From Candidatus Giovannonibacteria bacterium RIFCSPLOWO2_02_FULL_43_54 (lineage in GTDB: Bacteria > Patescibacteriota > Minisyncoccia > UBA11713 > 2-01-FULL-45-33), in NCBI GenBank assembly GCA_001778875.1, contig MFIK01000037.1, positions 1 through 44,452 on the forward strand: DNA of 44,452 nucleotides. The letters are read 5' to 3'. Shown piece by piece: positions 4,372 to 40,785 of the stretch. The notes beneath the pieces are model-generated. The model saw nothing but the letters and a program-made list of their open reading frames with translations. It had not been told where the DNA came from and searched no databases. The translations under genes and the position numbers were made by a program. Every line of letters begins with the position of its first letter. Position 1 is the stretch's first letter.

Positions 4372-4767
4372 TTACTTATTCCAGCATTTTTTTGACCACT
4401 TCCAGGGTGCCGTGCCGTATTTTTCATAGATGGCGAGCGCCACAGCTTCGTTCCCTTCCTCGGTGTAGAGGTCATGCCCGAGCTTTTTGGCCAGGTCGCC
4501 CCAATAAAGGACATTAATCTGGAATTTTCCGATATCATATTTATTGCGTTCTCCCACCAAGACATTTCCGTCGCCGTCGAAATGCCGCCCCTGTGATTCG
4601 CAGGCTGCTATGCGAGTAAGGACATCTGGGAGGGGTTCTTTTGCAATAGCTTGTATTTCCTTCCGTTGCGGGAAAGGAAAGGCGGGTGACGGGCTCATTT
4701 GCTGTTCATAAGCGACCCTTGGTATCGATAATAGCGCGGCAATTGCCGCGAAAACCAGATAATTCAT
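4372..4767 (-). CDS. secreted lysozyme-like / transglycosylase-like domain protein
   Basis: Signal peptide MNYLVFAAIAALLSIP. The motifs IAACESQG and IGKFQIN...YWG resemble the catalytic Glu region of transglycosylase-like (Rpf/SLT-type) domains. Confidence 0.55.
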   Translation of the reverse strand: MNYLVFAAIAALLSIPRVAYEQQMSPSPAFPFPQRKEIQAIAKEPLPDVLTRIAACESQGRHFDGDGNVLVGERNKYDIGKFQINVLYWGDLAKKLGHDLYTEEGNEAVALAIYEKYGTAPWKWSKKCWNK

Positions 4768-4823
4768 ATATTTACCAATATAAAAACGCCTATCTAGGCG
4801 CTATCATATATGGTCTTTTAAGC

Positions 4824-5273
4824 TTACGTCCTTTGTCCGGAAATGTCAACCTGACTTCCTAAATATGTCAAGAAAAAACTCAATATAAAAAGCGTTGTTG
4901 AGGTTATCGCGGAGATGACGCAATAGGTGCAGAGGGCGTGTATAACGAATAGCTGTAGATAAACAAAATAGGCGGAAGCCAAAAAACCGGTGACCGGAAC
5001 ATATTTTAATATTTTAAAAGCCGGCTCGTTTTTAGTGTCAAAATAAAAAACCGAGATGATGAGCATAAATAAATAATATGCCGCGCCGTAAAGTGCCAAC
5101 GGCAGGCCGAAAACTTTTGAATAGGCGCTCGTTGTCACCTGTTCACACCCCTTAAAGATGACGCAGGGGAGAGTCGCATTTTGATAGTGCTCTATCGTAA
5201 GATAAGAAGCATCAAGAAAGCCCAAAAAGCTTACGACAATAAAAACAATAACGATCAGCCTCTGTCTATCCAT
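4824..5273 (-). CDS. vitamin K epoxide reductase (VKOR) family membrane protein
   Basis: Multi-pass membrane protein with a loop Cys pair (LPCVIFKGCEQV) and an in-membrane CxxC (CTYC). It overlaps the upstream dsbA-like gene by 8 nt. Confidence 0.8.
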   Translation of the reverse strand: MDRQRLIVIVFIVVSFLGFLDASYLTIEHYQNATLPCVIFKGCEQVTTSAYSKVFGLPLALYGAAYYLFMLIISVFYFDTKNEPAFKILKYVPVTGFLASAYFVYLQLFVIHALCTYCVISAITSTTLFILSFFLTYLGSQVDISGQRT

Positions 5274-5994
5274 TCGCTTCTTGAATAAGTTTTACGAAAT
5301 CTTCGTATGACCTCGGCTGTATTTTTTTGCCGTTCAAAAAGAATGTGGGAGTTGAATTTACGAAATTGGCAACTCCGCTTTTATATTGGTCCGACACTTT
5401 GTTTTCTATCGCGGGCAAAGAGATGTCCTCGTCATATTTGGTCATATCAAGCTTCAGGGCTTCGGCATATTTCCTGAATATTTCATCCGCGTTTCCCTTT
5501 TCGGCCCAGTCGGTTTGTTTGTCAAATATCATATCGTGCATCTCCCAAAATTTTCCCTGGTTCGCGGCCGCTTCCGAGGCGTAAGCGGCGGGCTTTGCCT
5601 GCGCGTGCTGGGGAAGCGGGAAGTGCCGATAGACGAACAAGAATTCTTGGCCATGTTCTTTTATAAGCTGCTTTACCAGAGGATGATAGGCTTTACAGGC
5701 AGGACACTGAAAGTCGCTATATTCGATAAGGATATTTTTAGAATCCTTGTTGCCTACGGTCAGGTCATCCGGCGATACCGCGGTAGTGATGATTGGCGAT
5801 GGCCCAGGGTCGGAAGATCTATTTGCGAGTATTATCAACCCAAAAACCGAGCCAACAACCAAAAGTCCTACAACGGACCAGATTATGGCGCTTTTCGCGC
5901 GCTTCTTTTTTGCCGCGGTTTCTGCCGCATTTTTCTTTGCGACCCTGTTTATCTCGTATAATTCTTTTTTTGAAAGATTTTGATTGTTTTCCAT
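5266..5994 (-). CDS. DsbA-family thiol:disulfide oxidoreductase, membrane anchored
   Basis: N-terminal TM (IIWSVVGLLVVGSVFGLIILA) and a thioredoxin-fold CxxC (DFQCPACKAYHP). Confidence 0.85.
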   Translation of the reverse strand: MENNQNLSKKELYEINRVAKKNAAETAAKKKRAKSAIIWSVVGLLVVGSVFGLIILANRSSDPGPSPIITTAVSPDDLTVGNKDSKNILIEYSDFQCPACKAYHPLVKQLIKEHGQEFLFVYRHFPLPQHAQAKPAAYASEAAANQGKFWEMHDMIFDKQTDWAEKGNADEIFRKYAEALKLDMTKYDEDISLPAIENKVSDQYKSGVANFVNSTPTFFLNGKKIQPRSYEDFVKLIQEANG

Positions 5995-12270: not shown

Positions 12271-13218
12271 TTAGGGTAAAATTATTTCCAAATAATTTTC
12301 GTCGTCCAAAACAAAAACCTTGCCGTTCTTGATAGAAATTATTTCAGGTTTTTTTCCTTTGTAAATCGGTGCGATATTTTGCCCTCCGGAAGCATTCATT
12401 TCAAGAGCAAATATGCCGTTTTGCATAGCAATCAAAAGATAGTCTGCCCAGCCTGGATATTCAAAAACCTGCCTGATTATGGCGCCGCGGGGAGAAGTAT
12501 AAACGGTAATGGACGATCCTTTTTGCCACAAAGGCATTTTATCTTCGCTGTCAAGCCAAATTGAATCGATATTCCGGCCGTCCCAGAGAACAAGCCTCTG
12601 GTCGTTATCCTCGAACGCGGAGTTCGGATAGTTTTTTAGAGCATCCAGCGTTTCCGTGGGAAATTCATTAGTGATCCTTGCTTTATTGAGATAAAAATTC
12701 TCGTCTTCGCCCAAGATGACATATTTGCCGCTGGAAAGAGGCCAGAATTTTTTGACTCCGGAATAAGTCTCTTTCGCGATCTTGTTTTCATAATCATAAA
12801 GTGTCCCATTTTTTAAAAATGGCTCGAAAATTTCCGGTTTTTCACCAAGTATTTTTCCTTCCGGATTCATCGGCACAAGTAAGATATCTTTTGAGTTAAC
12901 TTCTTCGGAAACAACCTCAAGTTTCTTTTTCCATTCCCAAAATCCCTCTAATTTTACGGTAACTTCATGGATTCCGGGCGTAATATTTTTTATGAGAGCA
13001 CCTCCGGACAGATATGAGGTTGTTTTTTTCGGTTTCCCGTCGACATATATTTCCGCTCCAACCTGCGATGACTTTATGAAGATGCCTCCGGTTTTTTCAA
13101 AAACGAATCCGTTCCCAAGCCTATAGCCCAGGCTATAAATCAGCACCGCGCCGACTAGAAGAAAAAATACCGCGATAGAGATCCAAAAAAGCATCCTTCG
13201 TTTGCGAATAGTAAGCAT
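12271..13218 (-). CDS. membrane-anchored PEGA-domain protein
   Basis: N-terminal TM, then a PEGA-like segment (GAEIYVDGKPKKTTS...ITPGIHEVTVKLEGFWEWKKKLEV). Confidence 0.6.
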   Translation of the reverse strand: MLTIRKRRMLFWISIAVFFLLVGAVLIYSLGYRLGNGFVFEKTGGIFIKSSQVGAEIYVDGKPKKTTSYLSGGALIKNITPGIHEVTVKLEGFWEWKKKLEVVSEEVNSKDILLVPMNPEGKILGEKPEIFEPFLKNGTLYDYENKIAKETYSGVKKFWPLSSGKYVILGEDENFYLNKARITNEFPTETLDALKNYPNSAFEDNDQRLVLWDGRNIDSIWLDSEDKMPLWQKGSSITVYTSPRGAIIRQVFEYPGWADYLLIAMQNGIFALEMNASGGQNIAPIYKGKKPEIISIKNGKVFVLDDENYLEIILP

Positions 13219-13258
13219 AATTTGATTTCCTGTTCAATTTAGCATAAATTTTAAGTAC

Positions 13259-14503
13259 ATGCCAGCATTTTTGATTAAAGGAGGGGGCGCGTCCGTCCCA
13301 AATCTTGAGGGGGAGATCGCCGTCGGCAGTTCGAAAAACGCTTCGCTGCCAGCGCTTGCCTCGTCACTGCTTTTCGGCGATATGCCGCGTTTTTTAAACT
13401 TGCCCGAAATCGAAGACATCAAAAGGATGAGCGAGCTGATATTGTCAGTTGATAGCGAAGGAAATGTGGATCTGGACATCGCAAAAAGGTTCCGCGCTTC
13501 TATTCTTGTTGTAGGGCCGCTTTTGGCGAAGTTCGGGAGGGCATCTTTTCCTCATCCGGGCGGATGTCTGATCGGCGCGCGCCCAATCGACGTATTTATC
13601 AACGGCTGGGAAGCGATTGGCGGAAAATTGGTTAAATCCGGGAAAACCGACGGCGGAAATTTAATTTATACCGTTGAAGCGCCCGGAGGGCTTACAGGCT
13701 GCGACTATACTTTTAAAGTGCAAAGCGTAACCGGAACGGAGGGCATGATGATGACGGCACTTCTTGCAAAAGGGGATACCGTGCTCCGCAACTGCGCGAT
13801 GGAACCCGAAATAGAATATCTTGCCGATTTTTTAAATAAGAACGGAGCAGATATCCGCGGAGCGGGCACCACCGAAATAACTGTTGCAGGGCGGAGCGGC
13901 AAATTACTCCGCGCAGTTTCGCCTTTTTTGGCGCCTCCCGACAGGATTGAGGCGGGAACCCTTCTGATATTGGGGGCGCTTGCGGCACGTTCGCTCGAAA
14001 TAAAAAATATCAATAAATGCGAACTCGCGTCGTTATTTGCGGCGCTTGGCGAAGCAGGAGTTGAAACAATTGAAACAAAAAATGGCGTGCTTGTTAAAAA
14101 ACCTAAAAAAATAAATCCCGTAAACATTAAAACGAAAGAATATCCTGGGTTTGCGACGGACCTGCAGGCGCCGTTTTCGGTTTTGGCGACACAAGCCTCC
14201 GGCCAAAGCCTCATTCACGAAACTATCTTTGAAGGCAGGCTTGCTTACACGGAAGACTTGAACAGGATGGGGGCGAAAGTTACGTTGATGGATCCTCATC
14301 GCGCGCTGATTACGGGCCATACACCGCTCTACGGCAGGGAACTTACAAGCCCTGACTTGCGCGCCGGCCTCGCTTATGTTATCGCCGCGCTAATCGCTGA
14401 GGGAGAATCAAAAATCTGCAACATATACCAAATCGACCGCGGCTACGAAAAGATCGACGAACGTTTAAGAGCTATCGGCGCGGATATCGACAGAATTGAC
14501 TGA
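13259..14503 (+). CDS. murA: UDP-N-acetylglucosamine 1-carboxyvinyltransferase
   Basis: GEIAVGSSKNASLPALASSLL, catalytic Cys loop HPGGCLIGARPID, and C-terminal IDRGYEKIDERL. Confidence 0.93.
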   Translation: MPAFLIKGGGASVPNLEGEIAVGSSKNASLPALASSLLFGDMPRFLNLPEIEDIKRMSELILSVDSEGNVDLDIAKRFRASILVVGPLLAKFGRASFPHPGGCLIGARPIDVFINGWEAIGGKLVKSGKTDGGNLIYTVEAPGGLTGCDYTFKVQSVTGTEGMMMTALLAKGDTVLRNCAMEPEIEYLADFLNKNGADIRGAGTTEITVAGRSGKLLRAVSPFLAPPDRIEAGTLLILGALAARSLEIKNINKCELASLFAALGEAGVETIETKNGVLVKKPKKINPVNIKTKEYPGFATDLQAPFSVLATQASGQSLIHETIFEGRLAYTEDLNRMGAKVTLMDPHRALITGHTPLYGRELTSPDLRAGLAYVIAALIAEGESKICNIYQIDRGYEKIDERLRAIGADIDRID

Positions 14504-37299: not shown

Positions 37300-38586
37300 A
37301 TGAAGGATATAGAGGACATGTCAAAATATCAGCTGGTTTTATTGCTTATTTTAGTAAGCGTTGTTACGGCTTTGGTAACAGGCATTGTTGTAGCAACACT
37401 GGTCAGCCAGGCTCCACAGCCTGTCACGCAGACGATTCAGCGGGTCATCGAGAAAACCATAGGCGAAAACAAACCATTACCGCAAGATGACGCAAAAATG
37501 CTGGAGGAAAGCGCCCTAGCGCGCGATATTCTGATCGAGGATATTGTTGCGCGGGTATCTCCAGCTGTTGTCAGCGTCGTGGCCTCAAAAGATGTCCCGG
37601 TAATAGAACAATGCTACGGAAGTCTGCTTCCGGAAGATGATTTTTTCCGACAATTTTTCCAGGATTTTCAAATTCCGCAACTTTGTCAAAAAGGCGTAGA
37701 GCGGCGCCAGGTCTCTGCGGGAAGCGGATTTTTCGTTTCATCGGACGGCATGATTTTGACCAACAAGCATGTTGTTGAAGATACAGTCGCCGAGTACACG
37801 GTAATAATGAACAATAGTAAAAAGGTCCCCGCAAAAGTATTGGCGAGAGATCCGCTAAAAGATATAGCGGTACTCAAAATTGACGGCGAAGGTCATTCAT
37901 TCATATCGCTTGGCGATTCAGACGGCGTTAAGATCGGCCAGACTGCGATTGCGATAGGAAATGCTCTTGGTGAATTTCAAAACACCGTTTCAGCCGGCGT
38001 AATTTCAGGTTTAAAACGCACGCTTATAGCTTCCGGCGGGACTTCCGGGCCGGAAGAGCTTGCCGGAGTAATGCAGACGGATGCCGCAATCAATCCGGGA
38101 AATTCCGGAGGCCCGCTGCTTAATTTGAAAGGCGAAGCCATAGGATTAAATACCGCCATAGCGTATGGTGCACAAAACATAGGATTTGCGATTCCGATAA
38201 ACCAGATCAAGCGATCCATTTCCAGTGTAAAAACATCCGGCAAAATATCTTATCCATACCTCGGCGTAAGATACATGATAATTACAGCGGAATTTAAAGA
38301 AAAAAATAAATTGGCCGCAGATTACGGGGCTTTTGTGGTGAAAGGCTCTGGCGGAGAACCCGCGGTTATGCCTGATTCGCCGGCGATGAAAGCCCGTCTG
38401 CCGGATGGACAGACGGGCTTTAAAGAAGGGGATATAATTTTGGAATTTGGCGGAGTAAAGATTACAGCTGACAATTCTCTTGGAAAACTCATCGAAAACC
38501 GCTGGATCGGAGACAAAGTAACTTTAAAAATACTGCGCGACGGCAAAGAGCTGAATGTTGAAGTAATGCTGGAAGAAAGGAAATGA
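37300..38586 (+). CDS. htrA: HtrA/DegP-family serine protease with PDZ domain
   Basis: N-terminal TM, catalytic triad contexts (TNKHVV, DIAVLKI, GNSGGPLLN), and a C-terminal PDZ domain. Confidence 0.9.
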   Translation: MKDIEDMSKYQLVLLLILVSVVTALVTGIVVATLVSQAPQPVTQTIQRVIEKTIGENKPLPQDDAKMLEESALARDILIEDIVARVSPAVVSVVASKDVPVIEQCYGSLLPEDDFFRQFFQDFQIPQLCQKGVERRQVSAGSGFFVSSDGMILTNKHVVEDTVAEYTVIMNNSKKVPAKVLARDPLKDIAVLKIDGEGHSFISLGDSDGVKIGQTAIAIGNALGEFQNTVSAGVISGLKRTLIASGGTSGPEELAGVMQTDAAINPGNSGGPLLNLKGEAIGLNTAIAYGAQNIGFAIPINQIKRSISSVKTSGKISYPYLGVRYMIITAEFKEKNKLAADYGAFVVKGSGGEPAVMPDSPAMKARLPDGQTGFKEGDIILEFGGVKITADNSLGKLIENRWIGDKVTLKILRDGKELNVEVMLEERK

Positions 38587-38597
38587 AGCAATAAAAA

Positions 38598-38741
38598 TCA
38601 GAGCCCAAAATAAATATATATTGCCGCGGCCGCTCCAGTTAAAACGGCCGTGGCGAGAGCTTTGATAAAGTTTCTTGTTTCAACAAAAACAATAATGAAT
38701 ATGATAGCCACCGGCCAAAGTATTCGCGCGATGTCAATCAT
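38598..38741 (-). CDS. possible 47-aa two-helix membrane peptide
   Basis: MIDIARILWPVAIIFIIVFVETRNFIKALATAVLTGAAAAIYIYFGL. Its start lies within the last codons of the upstream small ORF, an 8-nt overlap (38734-38741). Confidence 0.35.
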   Translation of the reverse strand: MIDIARILWPVAIIFIIVFVETRNFIKALATAVLTGAAAAIYIYFGL

Positions 38742-38877
38742 AGATTACCGTCCCAGTCAGAGCTAAAATAATTACAACCAAAATCACAATCGCATATCCG
38801 GCAGCCGCGGTTTTCGGATGTTCCGGCAGAAAAATATTTTCACCTTGTGCAATCAGCCAAGCCATGTGTCTGTCCAT
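38734..38877 (-). CDS. possible 47-aa membrane peptide
   Basis: MDRHMAWLIAQGENIFLPEHPKTAAAGYAIVILVVIILALTGTVIYD. There is a Shine-Dalgarno-like AAGGGA 4-5 nt upstream of the ATG. Confidence 0.4.
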   Translation of the reverse strand: MDRHMAWLIAQGENIFLPEHPKTAAAGYAIVILVVIILALTGTVIYD

Positions 38878-39059
38878 ATTGTCCCTTGTTTAAACTTAAT
38901 TTCATCTGAAAATTATGCTAGCATGGTTAGATAATAAAGTCCACGATATAGCTAAAAATAAACTGTTACCACCGCGCAATGAATACCCGGCTATTTTGGA
39001 GAAAATTTAGGTGTTGTATAATGAATTTATTAAAAAGCAATAGAGGAATTAAAAATTTA

Positions 39060-39134
39060 ATGCCCCACTTACACGAAGAAAAAATTAAATTCTTAGAAAA
39101 AAAGGCGAACGATATTCGTGAGTCGATTATCTAG
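39060..39134 (+). pseudogene. 24-codon fragment of a transketolase N-terminal subunit gene (second, divergent copy)
   Basis: MPHLHEEKIKFLEKKANDIRESII* versus MPHLHDDKIKFLEQKANDIRQSIIE at 39713. 59 of 75 nt are identical, and 12 of the 16 differences are at third codon positions. Confidence 0.75.
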
Positions 39135-39173
39135 GTACTGGTATTGTTTCGGAAATTGTGTTAGGATAAGCAT

Positions 39174-39389
39174 ATGATTAATGAGTTTATAGAGAAAAAG
39201 CTTAAAGAGGCCAAATATAAAATTCTTAAGAATGGCTCCTATTTTGCCGAAATACCGAGTATAAAAGGCGTTTGGGCGGATTCGCATAATTTAGAAGATT
39301 GCAGAAAAGAACTCAAAGAAGTTTTAGAAGATTGGTTACTGCTAAATGTAAGGGATAGAAACCGAATTCCAGGTTTTAGCCTAACATAA
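39174..39389 (+). CDS. hicB: HicB-family antitoxin-like protein
   Basis: YFAEIPSIKGVWADSHNLEDCRKELKEVLEDWLLL matches the HicB N-terminal domain pattern. 71 aa. Confidence 0.65.
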   Translation: MINEFIEKKLKEAKYKILKNGSYFAEIPSIKGVWADSHNLEDCRKELKEVLEDWLLLNVRDRNRIPGFSLT

Positions 39390-39468
39390 ATATATTTCTA
39401 AACACTTACTTTCCGAAATTTTGCGACAAGCCGGGATTTCAGCTAAGGAGTGGAACAGACCTGATTGA
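39385..39468 (+). pseudogene. C-terminal remnant of a HicA-like toxin gene (no start codon)
   Basis: The open frame HKYISKHLLSEILRQAGISAKEWNRPD* resembles the conserved HicA C-terminus (...L..ILKQAGI...). The N-terminal ~40 codons are missing. Confidence 0.45.
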
Positions 39469-39536
39469 TACAAAATTGCCATTATTTGATATAATATATT
39501 TATTATTAAAAAAGCGATAGAGGAGTGAAAAAATTT

Positions 39537-39713
39537 ATGACCATAAAAAGTTATTTTCAGTTGGGTACAGTGTTTCTTGTTATAACTTTTTTGGCTTTAA
39601 TGGTTGGAGTTGATTTAAGACGCGCTTACGAGTTTTATATATTTATTGGCACACCCTTAGCGTTAAGTATGATATTCTTTATAATTGGGAGTTTAAGATA
39701 TTTTAAAAAATAA
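39537..39713 (+). CDS. 58-aa two-TM small membrane protein, translationally coupled to tkt
   Basis: AGAGGAG lies 11 nt upstream of the ATG at 39537. The stop overlaps the tkt start (TAATG). Confidence 0.45.
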   Translation: MTIKSYFQLGTVFLVITFLALMVGVDLRRAYEFYIFIGTPLALSMIFFIIGSLRYFKK

Positions 39714-40573
39714 TGCCCCATTTACACGACGACAAAATAAAGTTTCTTGAGCAAAAGGCCAACGATATCCGGCAGTCGATTATTGAGATGCTTGTTGAGG
39801 CGGGGAGCGGACATACCGCTGGGCCGTTGGGGATGACGGATATTTTTACCGCATTTTATTTTCATATTTTAAATCACGATCCAAAAAATCCGGCGATGGA
39901 AGATCGCGACCACCTGATTTTATCTAACGGCCACATCTGTCCTGTGCAATATGCCGCTATGGCGCATGCTGGATATTTTCCAATTGAAGAATTAAAAACT
40001 CTGCGAAAATTTGGTACCAGATTGCAGGGACACCCGCACCGCGGTTCTTTGCCCGGAGTTGAGACAACTTCCGGTCCTTTGGGTTCCGGGCTTTCGCAGG
40101 CTGCCGGGTACGCTTATGGCGCGCGGATGGATAATAAAAAATTTCGGGTTTATTGTCTGATGTCGGACGGCGAGCAGGATGCTGGCAATACGTGGGAAGC
40201 AGCGATGTTTGCTGGCAAAAATAAATTAAATAATCTTACGGCTCTTATAGATCGCAACAATATCCAAATAGATGGAATGACTGAAGATATTATGCCTTTA
40301 GAAAATTTGCGCGCGAAATACGAAGCGTTTAACTGGCATGTTTTGGAAATTAACGGGCATAACTTTGAAGAAATCGTGAACGCGACTGAAGAAGCAAAAG
40401 CCATATACGAAAAACCGACTTTAATAGTCGCGCATACTATTCCCGGAAAAGGGATAAAAGAGATAGAATTTGATTACAAATGGCATGGCATTCCGCCGAA
40501 TAAAGACCAAGCCGCGAAGTTTTTGTCGGAACTTCGCACGCTGTCAGGCAAGATTACCAGCGGACATCAATAG
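39713..40573 (+). CDS. tkt: transketolase, N-terminal (TPP-binding) subunit
   Basis: GSGHTAGPLGMTD, SNGHICPVQYA, and MSDGEQDAGNTWEA (ThDP motif). The gene is split. Confidence 0.92.
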   Translation: MPHLHDDKIKFLEQKANDIRQSIIEMLVEAGSGHTAGPLGMTDIFTAFYFHILNHDPKNPAMEDRDHLILSNGHICPVQYAAMAHAGYFPIEELKTLRKFGTRLQGHPHRGSLPGVETTSGPLGSGLSQAAGYAYGARMDNKKFRVYCLMSDGEQDAGNTWEAAMFAGKNKLNNLTALIDRNNIQIDGMTEDIMPLENLRAKYEAFNWHVLEINGHNFEEIVNATEEAKAIYEKPTLIVAHTIPGKGIKEIEFDYKWHGIPPNKDQAAKFLSELRTLSGKITSGHQ

Positions 40574-40578
40574 TTTTT

Positions 40579-40785
40579 ATGTTTAATTTATCAGTAAGAA
40601 TGGACATAAGGGCGAAGGATTTCGAATCAAAAGCCTATTTTATTATCTTCGGGCTTGTCGCCGCCCTTCTTGCGTTGCAGATCTATAATGTCGCATTTGG
40701 CGCGCTTGTAAGCGACCCGGTGGCCGCGGCGCAAAATCTCGGAGTATTTAGGCCTCATATTGAAAACAGCGATCTCGGCCGATAA
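40579..40785 (+). CDS. 68-aa small membrane protein between the two tkt subunit genes
   Basis: One TM (YFIIFGLVAALLALQIYNVAF). The gaps to the flanking genes are 5 and 9 nt. Confidence 0.4.
   Translation: MFNLSVRMDIRAKDFESKAYFIIFGLVAALLALQIYNVAFGALVSDPVAAAQNLGVFRPHIENSDLGR

Follow-up and report, generated by a model that had tools for sequence, protein, structure and literature searches.

Small cassettes bracketed by relics of rpe and tkt, among them a toxin-less hicB, at one locus of a Candidatus Giovannonibacteria genome

Just upstream of the transketolase gene tkt in a groundwater Candidatus Giovannonibacteria genome, a hicB antitoxin gene that has lost most of its hicA toxin partner lies between displaced copies of the end of rpe (ribulose-phosphate 3-epimerase) and the start of tkt. 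The locus is on contig MFIK01000037.1, whose 44,452 nt were analysed as a whole and are called the window here. As the same layout is found in several relatives, with one layout common to at least six Giovannonibacteria lineages, the rpe-tkt junction can be regarded as a recurrent landing site for small cassettes, a defined spot between two pentose-phosphate genes where strains from groundwater metagenomes have acquired, rearranged, and degraded such cassettes. It is probable, though well short of certain, that a recombination hotspot working through junction homology accumulated cassettes at this site and that toxin loss followed. Members of the candidate phyla radiation (CPR), or Patescibacteria, have tiny genomes that are often described as poor in mobile elements and toxin-antitoxin (TA) systems, and a literature search found no description of this rpe-tkt locus.

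Results

Relics of rpe and tkt in the window

Below, R denotes a relic of the rpe 3' end and T a relic of the tkt 5' end; L-numbers stand for contigs or loci of relatives, and X-numbers for sequencing runs. The window locus comprises the following features, in which ORF stands for open reading frame and TM for transmembrane.

39017..39059, plus strand: first rpe 3' relic (R_A), reading in frame K A I E E L K I and stop
39060..39143, plus strand: first 28 codons of an apparently foreign tkt (T_A), orthologous to the T fragment at L081:2371-2453
39144..39173, plus strand: spacer and ribosome-binding region before hicB, ending in TTGTGTTAGGATAAGCAT-ATG and specific to the cassette
39174..39389, plus strand: hicB antitoxin gene, 71 aa, PF21748 (UPF0150/HicB-like), E 2.8e-24
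39385..39468, plus strand: hicA remnant, last 27 codons and stop without a start codon, recognized by alignment to intact HicA
39484..39536, plus strand: second rpe 3' relic (R_B), reading ...I I K K A I E E stop K N L
39537..39713, plus strand: 58-aa ORF with two predicted TM helices, between R_B and tkt
39713..40573, plus strand: functional tkt N-terminal subunit, PF00456, E 6e-59

The repetition of the tkt start, reported by an earlier reading of the bare letters (hereafter the sequence-only reading), is real: the copies at 39060-39134 and 39713-39787 are identical at 59 of 75 nt, and their 16 differences fall four at first, none at second, and 12 at third codon positions (binomial P = 8e-4 for at least 12 of 16 at position 3). 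The downstream copy, T_B, is the first ~84 nt of the functional tkt, and the 17-nt start motif ATGCCCCAYYTRCACGA occurs in the window at these two sites only, against 0.01 sites expected by chance. The upstream copy had been described as 24 tkt codons ending in TAG. That stop is present at 39132-39134, where codons 25-26 have changed from GAG ATG to TAG GTA, but comparison with the orthologous L081 fragment, which lies upstream of the same hicB as in the window, extends the homology to ~39143, or 28 codons. The cassette-specific spacer that follows is conserved with L081, from which it differs at 2 positions, and with L001.

A second repeated segment, taken in the sequence-only reading for the promoter and leader of tkt, is likewise repeated, its copies at 39025-39065 and 39502-39542 being 78% identical, but its origin is a different one. 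Read in frame, the supposed leader AAAGCGATAGAGGAGTTAAAAAA gives K-A-I-E-E-L-K, the end of rpe, and the repeat holds the last ~11, possibly ~17, codons of that gene. R_A aligns with the real rpe 3' ends of L002, L003, L004, L006, L008, and L010, with 1 mismatch in 23-25 nt between R and that of L010, while over 35 nt R_B shares 94% identity with the corresponding rpe end in L124 (...KAIEELKNL and stop). In R_A, a TAATG overlaps the next ATG and TATAAT precedes at 39017-39022; the core of this relic (39034-39056) has 3 mismatches to the R consensus, in direct orientation, where the chance expectation is 0. R_B carries the extended -10-like box TGATATAAT at 39487-39495 and GAGGAG at 39520-39525.

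In a survey of 80 related Parcubacteria loci, rpe lies at most 120 nt from tkt in 34, lies upstream of tkt with 122-3216 nt between them in 19, and is absent from the available upstream flank in the remaining 27. Among the 11 closest loci, rpe abuts tkt in 4 and is separated from it by 379-2853 nt in 6; the L001 contig ends before rpe. Since the leader is the end of rpe and rpe adjoins tkt in relatives, the repeat unit is, as judged by alignment, the rpe/tkt junction itself, made up of the last ~11-17 codons of rpe and then the first 24-28 codons of tkt. The whole 44-kb window contains no intact rpe, only the two relics. In this it resembles L124, with tkt lacking rpe in the window and, in L124 (reverse complement, 12296-13400), a ClpB-like gene rather than tkt following rpe, so the rpe-tkt linkage has been broken more than once in the group.

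The source of the tkt fragment can be narrowed further. T_A encodes MPHLHEEKIKFLEKKANDIRESII, and each of its differences from the resident tkt occurs in real orthologues; its KFLEKKANDIRESII is identical in L002 tkt. T_A has 82% identity with the tkt of L001 and 80% with that of L002, but 76% with the tkt of its own genome, bearing out the proposal that it derives from the functional tkt of another lineage. The T relic that stands beside the same hicB in L081 is closest to an L008-type tkt (84.5%). Between the window and L081, T plus hicB are 86.7% identical at the nucleotide level and the tkt genes 77-80%. For orientation, the protein of the window's tkt subunit (39713-40573) shares 92% identity with that of one Candidatus Giovannonibacteria metagenome-assembled genome and 73-87% with those of 79 other Parcubacteria/CPR loci. 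This pattern fits relics that would be former functional gene ends of other lineages, with crossovers inside T during transfer, and is at odds with decay in place; T fragments of differing source beside one hicB, L001/L002-like in the window and L008-like in L081, are what crossovers inside T would produce. Sliding identity along tkt was too noisy to serve as proof of a mosaic 5' end.

Loss of the toxin gene

The hicB gene had been called intact, and its domain is complete: the PF21748 match spans the whole model (1-64 of 64) and residues 4-66 of the window protein, for which 304 homologues were found, several named as HicB family. The C terminus is not intact, the last 11 residues of the 81-aa form having been exchanged for a single Thr. 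The window HicB is 98.6% identical in amino acids to that of L001, with 22 synonymous and 1 non-synonymous codon changes between the two genes; against L081, where nucleotide identity is 90%, the counts are 17 and 3. These ratios indicate that hicB evolves under strong purifying selection, which may predate the deletion described next.

As the sequence-only reading had proposed, the segment after hicB is a HicA-like remnant without a start. Its product HKYISKHLLSEILRQAGISAKEWNRPD aligns to residues 46-69 of the L017 HicA with 58% identity (E 1.3e-5, search of the window) and also to HRGDISKYLLSEILRQAGIVSKEWNKHD of L081; the remnant alone matches PF07927 weakly (E 0.12, model positions 39-58 of 58), an assignment that is rescued by the pairwise and orthologue evidence. 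The suggestion that an intact hicA might exist elsewhere found nothing to support it in the 44-kb window, where there is no second hicA. Intact pairs are known from relatives: in L017, hicB (79 aa) is followed by hicA (70 aa), and in L081-L090, upstream of tkt as in the window, hicB (81 aa) overlaps hicA (71 aa, PF07927, E 5e-11). The alignment of the window with L081 ends at window 39384 (L081:2695) and resumes at window 39392 (L081:2862, placed by reading both sequences), so that 166 nt of L081-type sequence (2696-2861) are exchanged for a 7-nt filler (39385-39391) at the junction 39384/39385. This removes HicB residues 71-81 and HicA residues 1-46. With only C-terminal toxin residues left, the window locus is the remnant of a HicAB member rather than a working pair, and comparison with the intact L081-type cassette at the same locus upholds the earlier idea that the toxin was deleted and the antitoxin, with its domain complete, left behind. 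The deletion allele is the sole form in the 24 contigs that carry the 58-aa ORF.

Comparison of the locus across strains, which the sequence-only reading had recommended, recovered the same cassette in both L081-type and L001/L129 genomes and revealed that its toxin has been lost elsewhere as well. In the closest relative (L001/L129), hicB is intact (81 aa) and hicA is reduced to codons 1-11 and the last few codons. A second, unrelated pair is intact in L126 (hicB2, 93 aa; hicA2, 76 aa, PF07927, E 6e-7), and in L081 a ~165-nt deletion has stripped it of the antitoxin gene's end and of toxin codons 1 to ~48. The window, L001/L129, and L081 have thus each lost a HicA toxin through an independent deletion of ~160 bp with its own end points, a natural replicate experiment on the decay of TA modules in which HicA was lost three times and hicB kept. 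In L081:1960-2000, compared with L126, hicB2 also has a +1 frameshift that is undone 37 nt later by one of -1, so that 12 residues are recoded; this could be real decay or a sequencing error.

Members of the hicBA family also occur in pilus clusters, in TA islands, and next to argS. No T or R relics were found at these other contexts (L017, L119-L123), so the relics belong to the hotspot site and not to the cassette.

The same arrangement in relatives

Layouts of the locus in the window and its relatives are given below; L129 is a 105-kb contig that carries the full array of the L001-type genome, the whole layout on that single contig.

Window: R T [hicB ΔhicA] R [TM58] tkt
L129: rpe [pilin-like 187 aa] T [hicB ΔhicA] R [TM144] T·R T'·R [TM72] R [TM52] tkt
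L081: [TM120] T [two-gene pair] R [224 aa] T' [hicB2 ΔhicA2] R(decayed) [TM62] T [hicB hicA] R [pilin-like] tkt
L126: rpe [TM67] T [hicB2 hicA2] R [TM54] tkt
L003 and L116: rpe (TM40), T-fused ORF and DUF6036 nucleotidyltransferase, R, TM ORF, tkt

The arrays follow a simple rule, in which TA modules always stand as T-cassette-R and small predicted membrane ORFs always as R-ORF-T. At least three to four unrelated cassettes are bracketed by T and R, and an array holds up to five R copies. All R and T relics are in direct orientation with tkt and none is on the minus strand; shuffled controls gave none, the chance expectation being 0. In the window, L081, and L129, hicBA has copies of the target-gene ends on both sides as direct repeats, as do other cassettes in L126, L003, and L116. 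Relic lengths vary, T measuring 24, 36, 42, or 84 nt (28 codons for the L081-type T before hicB-hicA) and R about 30-50 nt. The content between rpe and tkt differs in nearly every Giovannonibacteria locus, and cassette order is permuted, the pilin-like ORF lying upstream of hicB in L001/L129 and downstream of it in L081.

A TGnTATAAT box stands 8-11 nt upstream of the R core at the right-hand R of three different cassettes (window 39487-39495; L001; L081; L126). Together with an R that carries GAGGAG, it could form a portable promoter and leader; although R is derived from rpe, the function proposed for this segment in the sequence-only reading may hold after all. A promoter and terminator consensus scan found 7 promoter-like sites against 4.8 in shuffles, which is not above the shuffles. 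Rfam returned nothing relevant for 38500-40000, and the locus was not found in metatranscriptome runs.

Small ORFs and other variable features

The 58-aa ORF of the window, whose stop overlaps the tkt ATG (TAATG), is an ORFan that matched only itself among 5.8 billion proteins, and the small TM ORFs that occupy its position in relatives are not related to it. Across the arrays, small membrane ORFs are nearly all mutually unrelated, with one similar pair (L003 TM72 and L081 TM62). Just upstream of the window array, on the minus strand at 38598-38877, are two overlapping 47-aa membrane ORFs without a family match, which were called as genes in the independent assemblies L086 and L134. The split transketolase has a further variable spot between its two halves (window 40579-40785; L081:4508-4714). 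In the window and L081 this spot holds a 68-aa membrane ORF with no Pfam match, and in the L001/L129 type (L129 reverse complement, 4474-5452) it holds ORFs of 87 and 237 aa.

In some relatives (L003, L116, and L007), cassette genes begin with a start codon and N-terminus derived from tkt. The cassette gene at L003:381-584 has the tkt-derived start MSHLHEDKIKLLEDK; L116:3691-4335 (minus strand) has the fused start MPHLHESKIKFLEDK, and its nucleotidyltransferase ORF ends in R-like sequence in another frame; and a 523-aa trypsin-like protease at L007:2427-2465 begins with the tkt-derived (GTG)SYLPDSKIKFL. Fold-forming sequence was seen at two relics. A GC-rich double hairpin, CCGCCTTGGGCGG ACCAGCCTAAGGCTGG, lies inside R at L081:2975-3004 (fold z -4.7) in AT-rich surroundings, and a ~60-nt imperfect GC-rich palindrome lies between T' and R at L001:1124-1186; such hairpins could be terminators or miniature elements.

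The two-gene pair of the L081 array (~68 and ~85 aa) recurs in two further loci (L081:510-989, L002:3531-3997, and L009:2202-2615) and bears the motif GYRxRxGxWRxLF. By eye this 69/87-aa pair seems RelE/ParE-like, but it has no Pfam or NCBIfam match. The L009 copy of its larger gene lacks ~20 internal codons, a possible fourth toxin-inactivating deletion that is not counted above. Four independent contigs of the L081-type genome (L081, L082, L083, and L088) begin at the same place, which is also where L089 and L090 start, and a repeat there probably breaks assemblies. The sequence at L081:1-140 (...NRFRGILIRWSKKAENYLALLHLSCA...) looks by eye like the C-terminus of an IS4/IS5-type transposase, but Pfam gave no match for the 43-aa piece.

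Discussion

How the array may have formed

We favor a sequence of events in which the hicB-hicA module travels as a T-hicB-hicA-R unit and would enter by recombination guided by junction homology. By one route, a single (Campbell-type) crossover between the chromosomal junction and a circularised cassette that itself carries an R/T junction would give R/T(fragment)-cassette-R(fragment)/T; by another, a ready T-cassette-R unit would be imported from a relative by double crossover. By either route, the cassette would end up with a displaced piece of a foreign tkt 5' end to its left and a piece of an rpe 3' end to its right. Recombination between flanking copies could then release circles and permit reordering, and double-crossover import could spread ready-made units among relatives. 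Because R keeps a TGnTATAAT box and a GGAGG ribosome-binding site, the downstream membrane ORF and tkt would remain expressible. A ~160-bp deletion later took away the end of hicB together with hicA codons 1-46, yielding a toxin-less HicB whose domain is complete.

Several observations weigh against this history. Neither a circular or excised form nor a cassette-free allele of the strain was seen among the Logan contigs. At about 40 + 84 nt, the homology offered by the junction is short, and with an identity that is now only ~78% it would be a poor RecA substrate unless the copies were once more alike. With the left R a mere relic and no rpe in 44 kb, at least one further rearrangement is needed. 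Strong relics are confined to this Giovannonibacteria clade, self-similarity scans finding them at 1 of 19 other insert-bearing rpe-tkt loci, and a simple sigma-70 consensus scan called no promoter at the TATAAT boxes.

A bolder version of the hotspot, which we hold to be possible but doubtful, is that the rpe/tkt junction of a Giovannonibacteria clade is a true cassette-capture platform in these ultra-small CPR bacteria, integron-like but without attC hairpins. Each cassette would bring its own junction copy, which would double as a site for recombination and a portable promoter with ribosome-binding site, so keeping tkt expressed. If so, the cargo, TA modules together with ORFan membrane peptides that evolve fast, would be moved by the host's own recombination or by some as yet unrecognised recombinase.

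The sequence-only reading took the simplest view, a single homologous-recombination import of a TA cassette together with foreign tkt flank, with the repeats as a duplicated tkt promoter and leader. We regard this literal form as unlikely, although parts of it survive. T_A does look foreign, the cassette is 87-90% identical between the window and L081 where tkt is 77-80% identical, and double-crossover import of a ready-made unit is a possible route for this particular genome. Such import would explain the spread of T-cassette-R units but not their formation; the leader is the rpe 3' end, and far from being a one-off the T-cassette-R arrangement recurs in at least six lineages, where T and R bracket at least three to four unrelated cassettes and many small ORFs, with up to five R copies and permuted order.

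Duplication of the rpe/tkt junction in place, whether as a long target duplication or by replication slippage, with the cassette inserted between the copies and one copy then decaying, would account for "empty" T·R units such as L001:963-1015 and the T'-hairpin-R unit, and for the R relic of L003, which is 26/27 identical to the rpe 3' end of its own genome. It seems improbable to us, since T_A and T_B differ at 12 third and 0 second positions (P 8e-4), the variants of T_A all occur in real tkt genes, and the resident tkt is less like T_A than are those of other genomes. T relics of different sources beside the same cassette tell against it too, and the small present sample already points to relics that do not cluster with their own tkt.

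We think it very improbable that a dedicated site-specific system with a core site in the junction, served by an integron-like or Xer/dif-module-like recombinase encoded elsewhere, built these arrays. Direct repeats between small, often promoter-poor cassettes, TA and ORFan cargo, and permuted order are what such a system would be expected to leave, and only 44 kb of the genome are visible. However, the relics vary in length (T 24, 36, 42, or 84 nt; R about 30-50 nt), folding gave no attC-like structure for the junction (z 0.4 and -0.03), and no recombinase-like ORF was evident by eye among 40 large window ORFs; the transposase-like sequence seen by eye at the starts of L081-L083 and L088 was not confirmed by Pfam.

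That the arrangement is an assembly chimera of two co-occurring strains has next to no probability for the window, even though L086, which switches from window-identical to L081-identical inside hicB, shows that chimeric or recombinant joins do occur at the locus. The sequencing runs that contain the locus, all groundwater or soil metagenomes, were examined as Logan contigs rather than raw reads. Single contigs from runs X3 and X5 span 38700-40100 with 0 differences, and the same interval is covered without difference in X6 by two contigs meeting near 39840-39866 and in X7 by several overlapping contigs. These runs come from four studies, and all 24 contigs read with the 58-aa ORF have the same gene order and the 71-aa HicB. 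The same arrangement in independent assemblies is not an assembly artefact, and the chimera that was to overturn the earlier reading did not materialize.

L086 itself had been entertained as a 99.4% identical sister strain with an undeleted hicB, an interpretation we rejected as all 19 mismatches lie after 39237. Its segment 3880-4355 (window 39053-39384) is window-identical to 39237 and L081-identical from 39238; the two sequences share a run of only 37 nt at the switch, and after a further 144 nt the contig stops. Either the assembly joined two co-occurring lineages wrongly or these have truly recombined inside hicB, and for that reason L086 was not used for dating the deletion.

Comparison with known systems

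HicAB is a type II TA system in which HicA is an mRNA interferase and HicB the antitoxin. The window locus shares with it an antitoxin of the HicB fold (PF21748), and the relatives supply a 70-71-aa HicA (PF07927, E 5e-11) after hicB with stop/start overlap, in a module that is mobile and found in many contexts. A full toxin is present in the orthologous L081 cassette (E 5e-11) and in that of L126 (E 6e-7), whereas in the window it is cut to its last 27 codons (residues ~47-71), the N-terminal catalytic region being gone. The order is hicB and then hicA, and HicB, at 81 aa, is short, with the UPF0150 domain as its sole Pfam match.

A chromosomal ccd system reportedly acts as an anti-addiction module against plasmid ccd. 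The window resembles this case in that an antitoxin is kept without its toxin while L081-type genomes, also from groundwater metagenomes, carry a related intact hicBA (hicB 90% identical in nucleotides). The orphan HicB might act as an anti-addiction module against incoming HicA, and its retention here offers a testable case of anti-addiction versus lag in decay.

Chromosomal integron arrays, such as the super-integrons of Vibrio, are rich in TA cassettes and ORFans. The rpe-tkt arrays are similar in their small cassettes, the direct repeats between them, their TA and ORFan cargo, and an order that varies among relatives. They differ in that the repeat consists of pieces of two housekeeping genes rather than attC and that its boundaries vary. 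Folding of the R/T junction on both strands gave z 0.41 and -0.03, and that of R_B 0.90 and 0.52, unlike attC, and no intI or other recombinase was evident by eye among the 40 window ORFs of at least 110 aa or in the flanks of L081 and L129.

Islands at tRNA and transfer-messenger RNA genes, and the staphylococcal cassette chromosome (SCC) at the 3' end of rlmH, bring with them a copy of their target gene's end, so that partial duplicates remain, and SCC elements stack in tandem. Here, too, an intact target is regenerated, a displaced partial copy is left, and insertions stack into arrays. What is duplicated, however, is the 5' end of tkt with the 3' end of its upstream neighbor, and the inserts are 0.3-0.8 kb long, hold only TA genes or small ORFs, and encode no recombinase. 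Instead of a constant crossover core and an element-encoded recombinase, T ends at 24, 36, 42, or 84 nt.

The locus also fits the general idea of hotspots of horizontal transfer between core genes, whose content is said to turn over by homologous recombination in the flanks. As in those hotspots, the same flanking genes, rpe and tkt, enclose accessory content that varies across genomes; internal copies of the flank ends, not usual there, mark each cassette here. Because such relic gene ends record past insertions, the recombination history of an uncultured lineage can be read from sequence alone, and this readable insertion record, together with the recurrent toxin-only deletions, makes up the most useful side of the locus.

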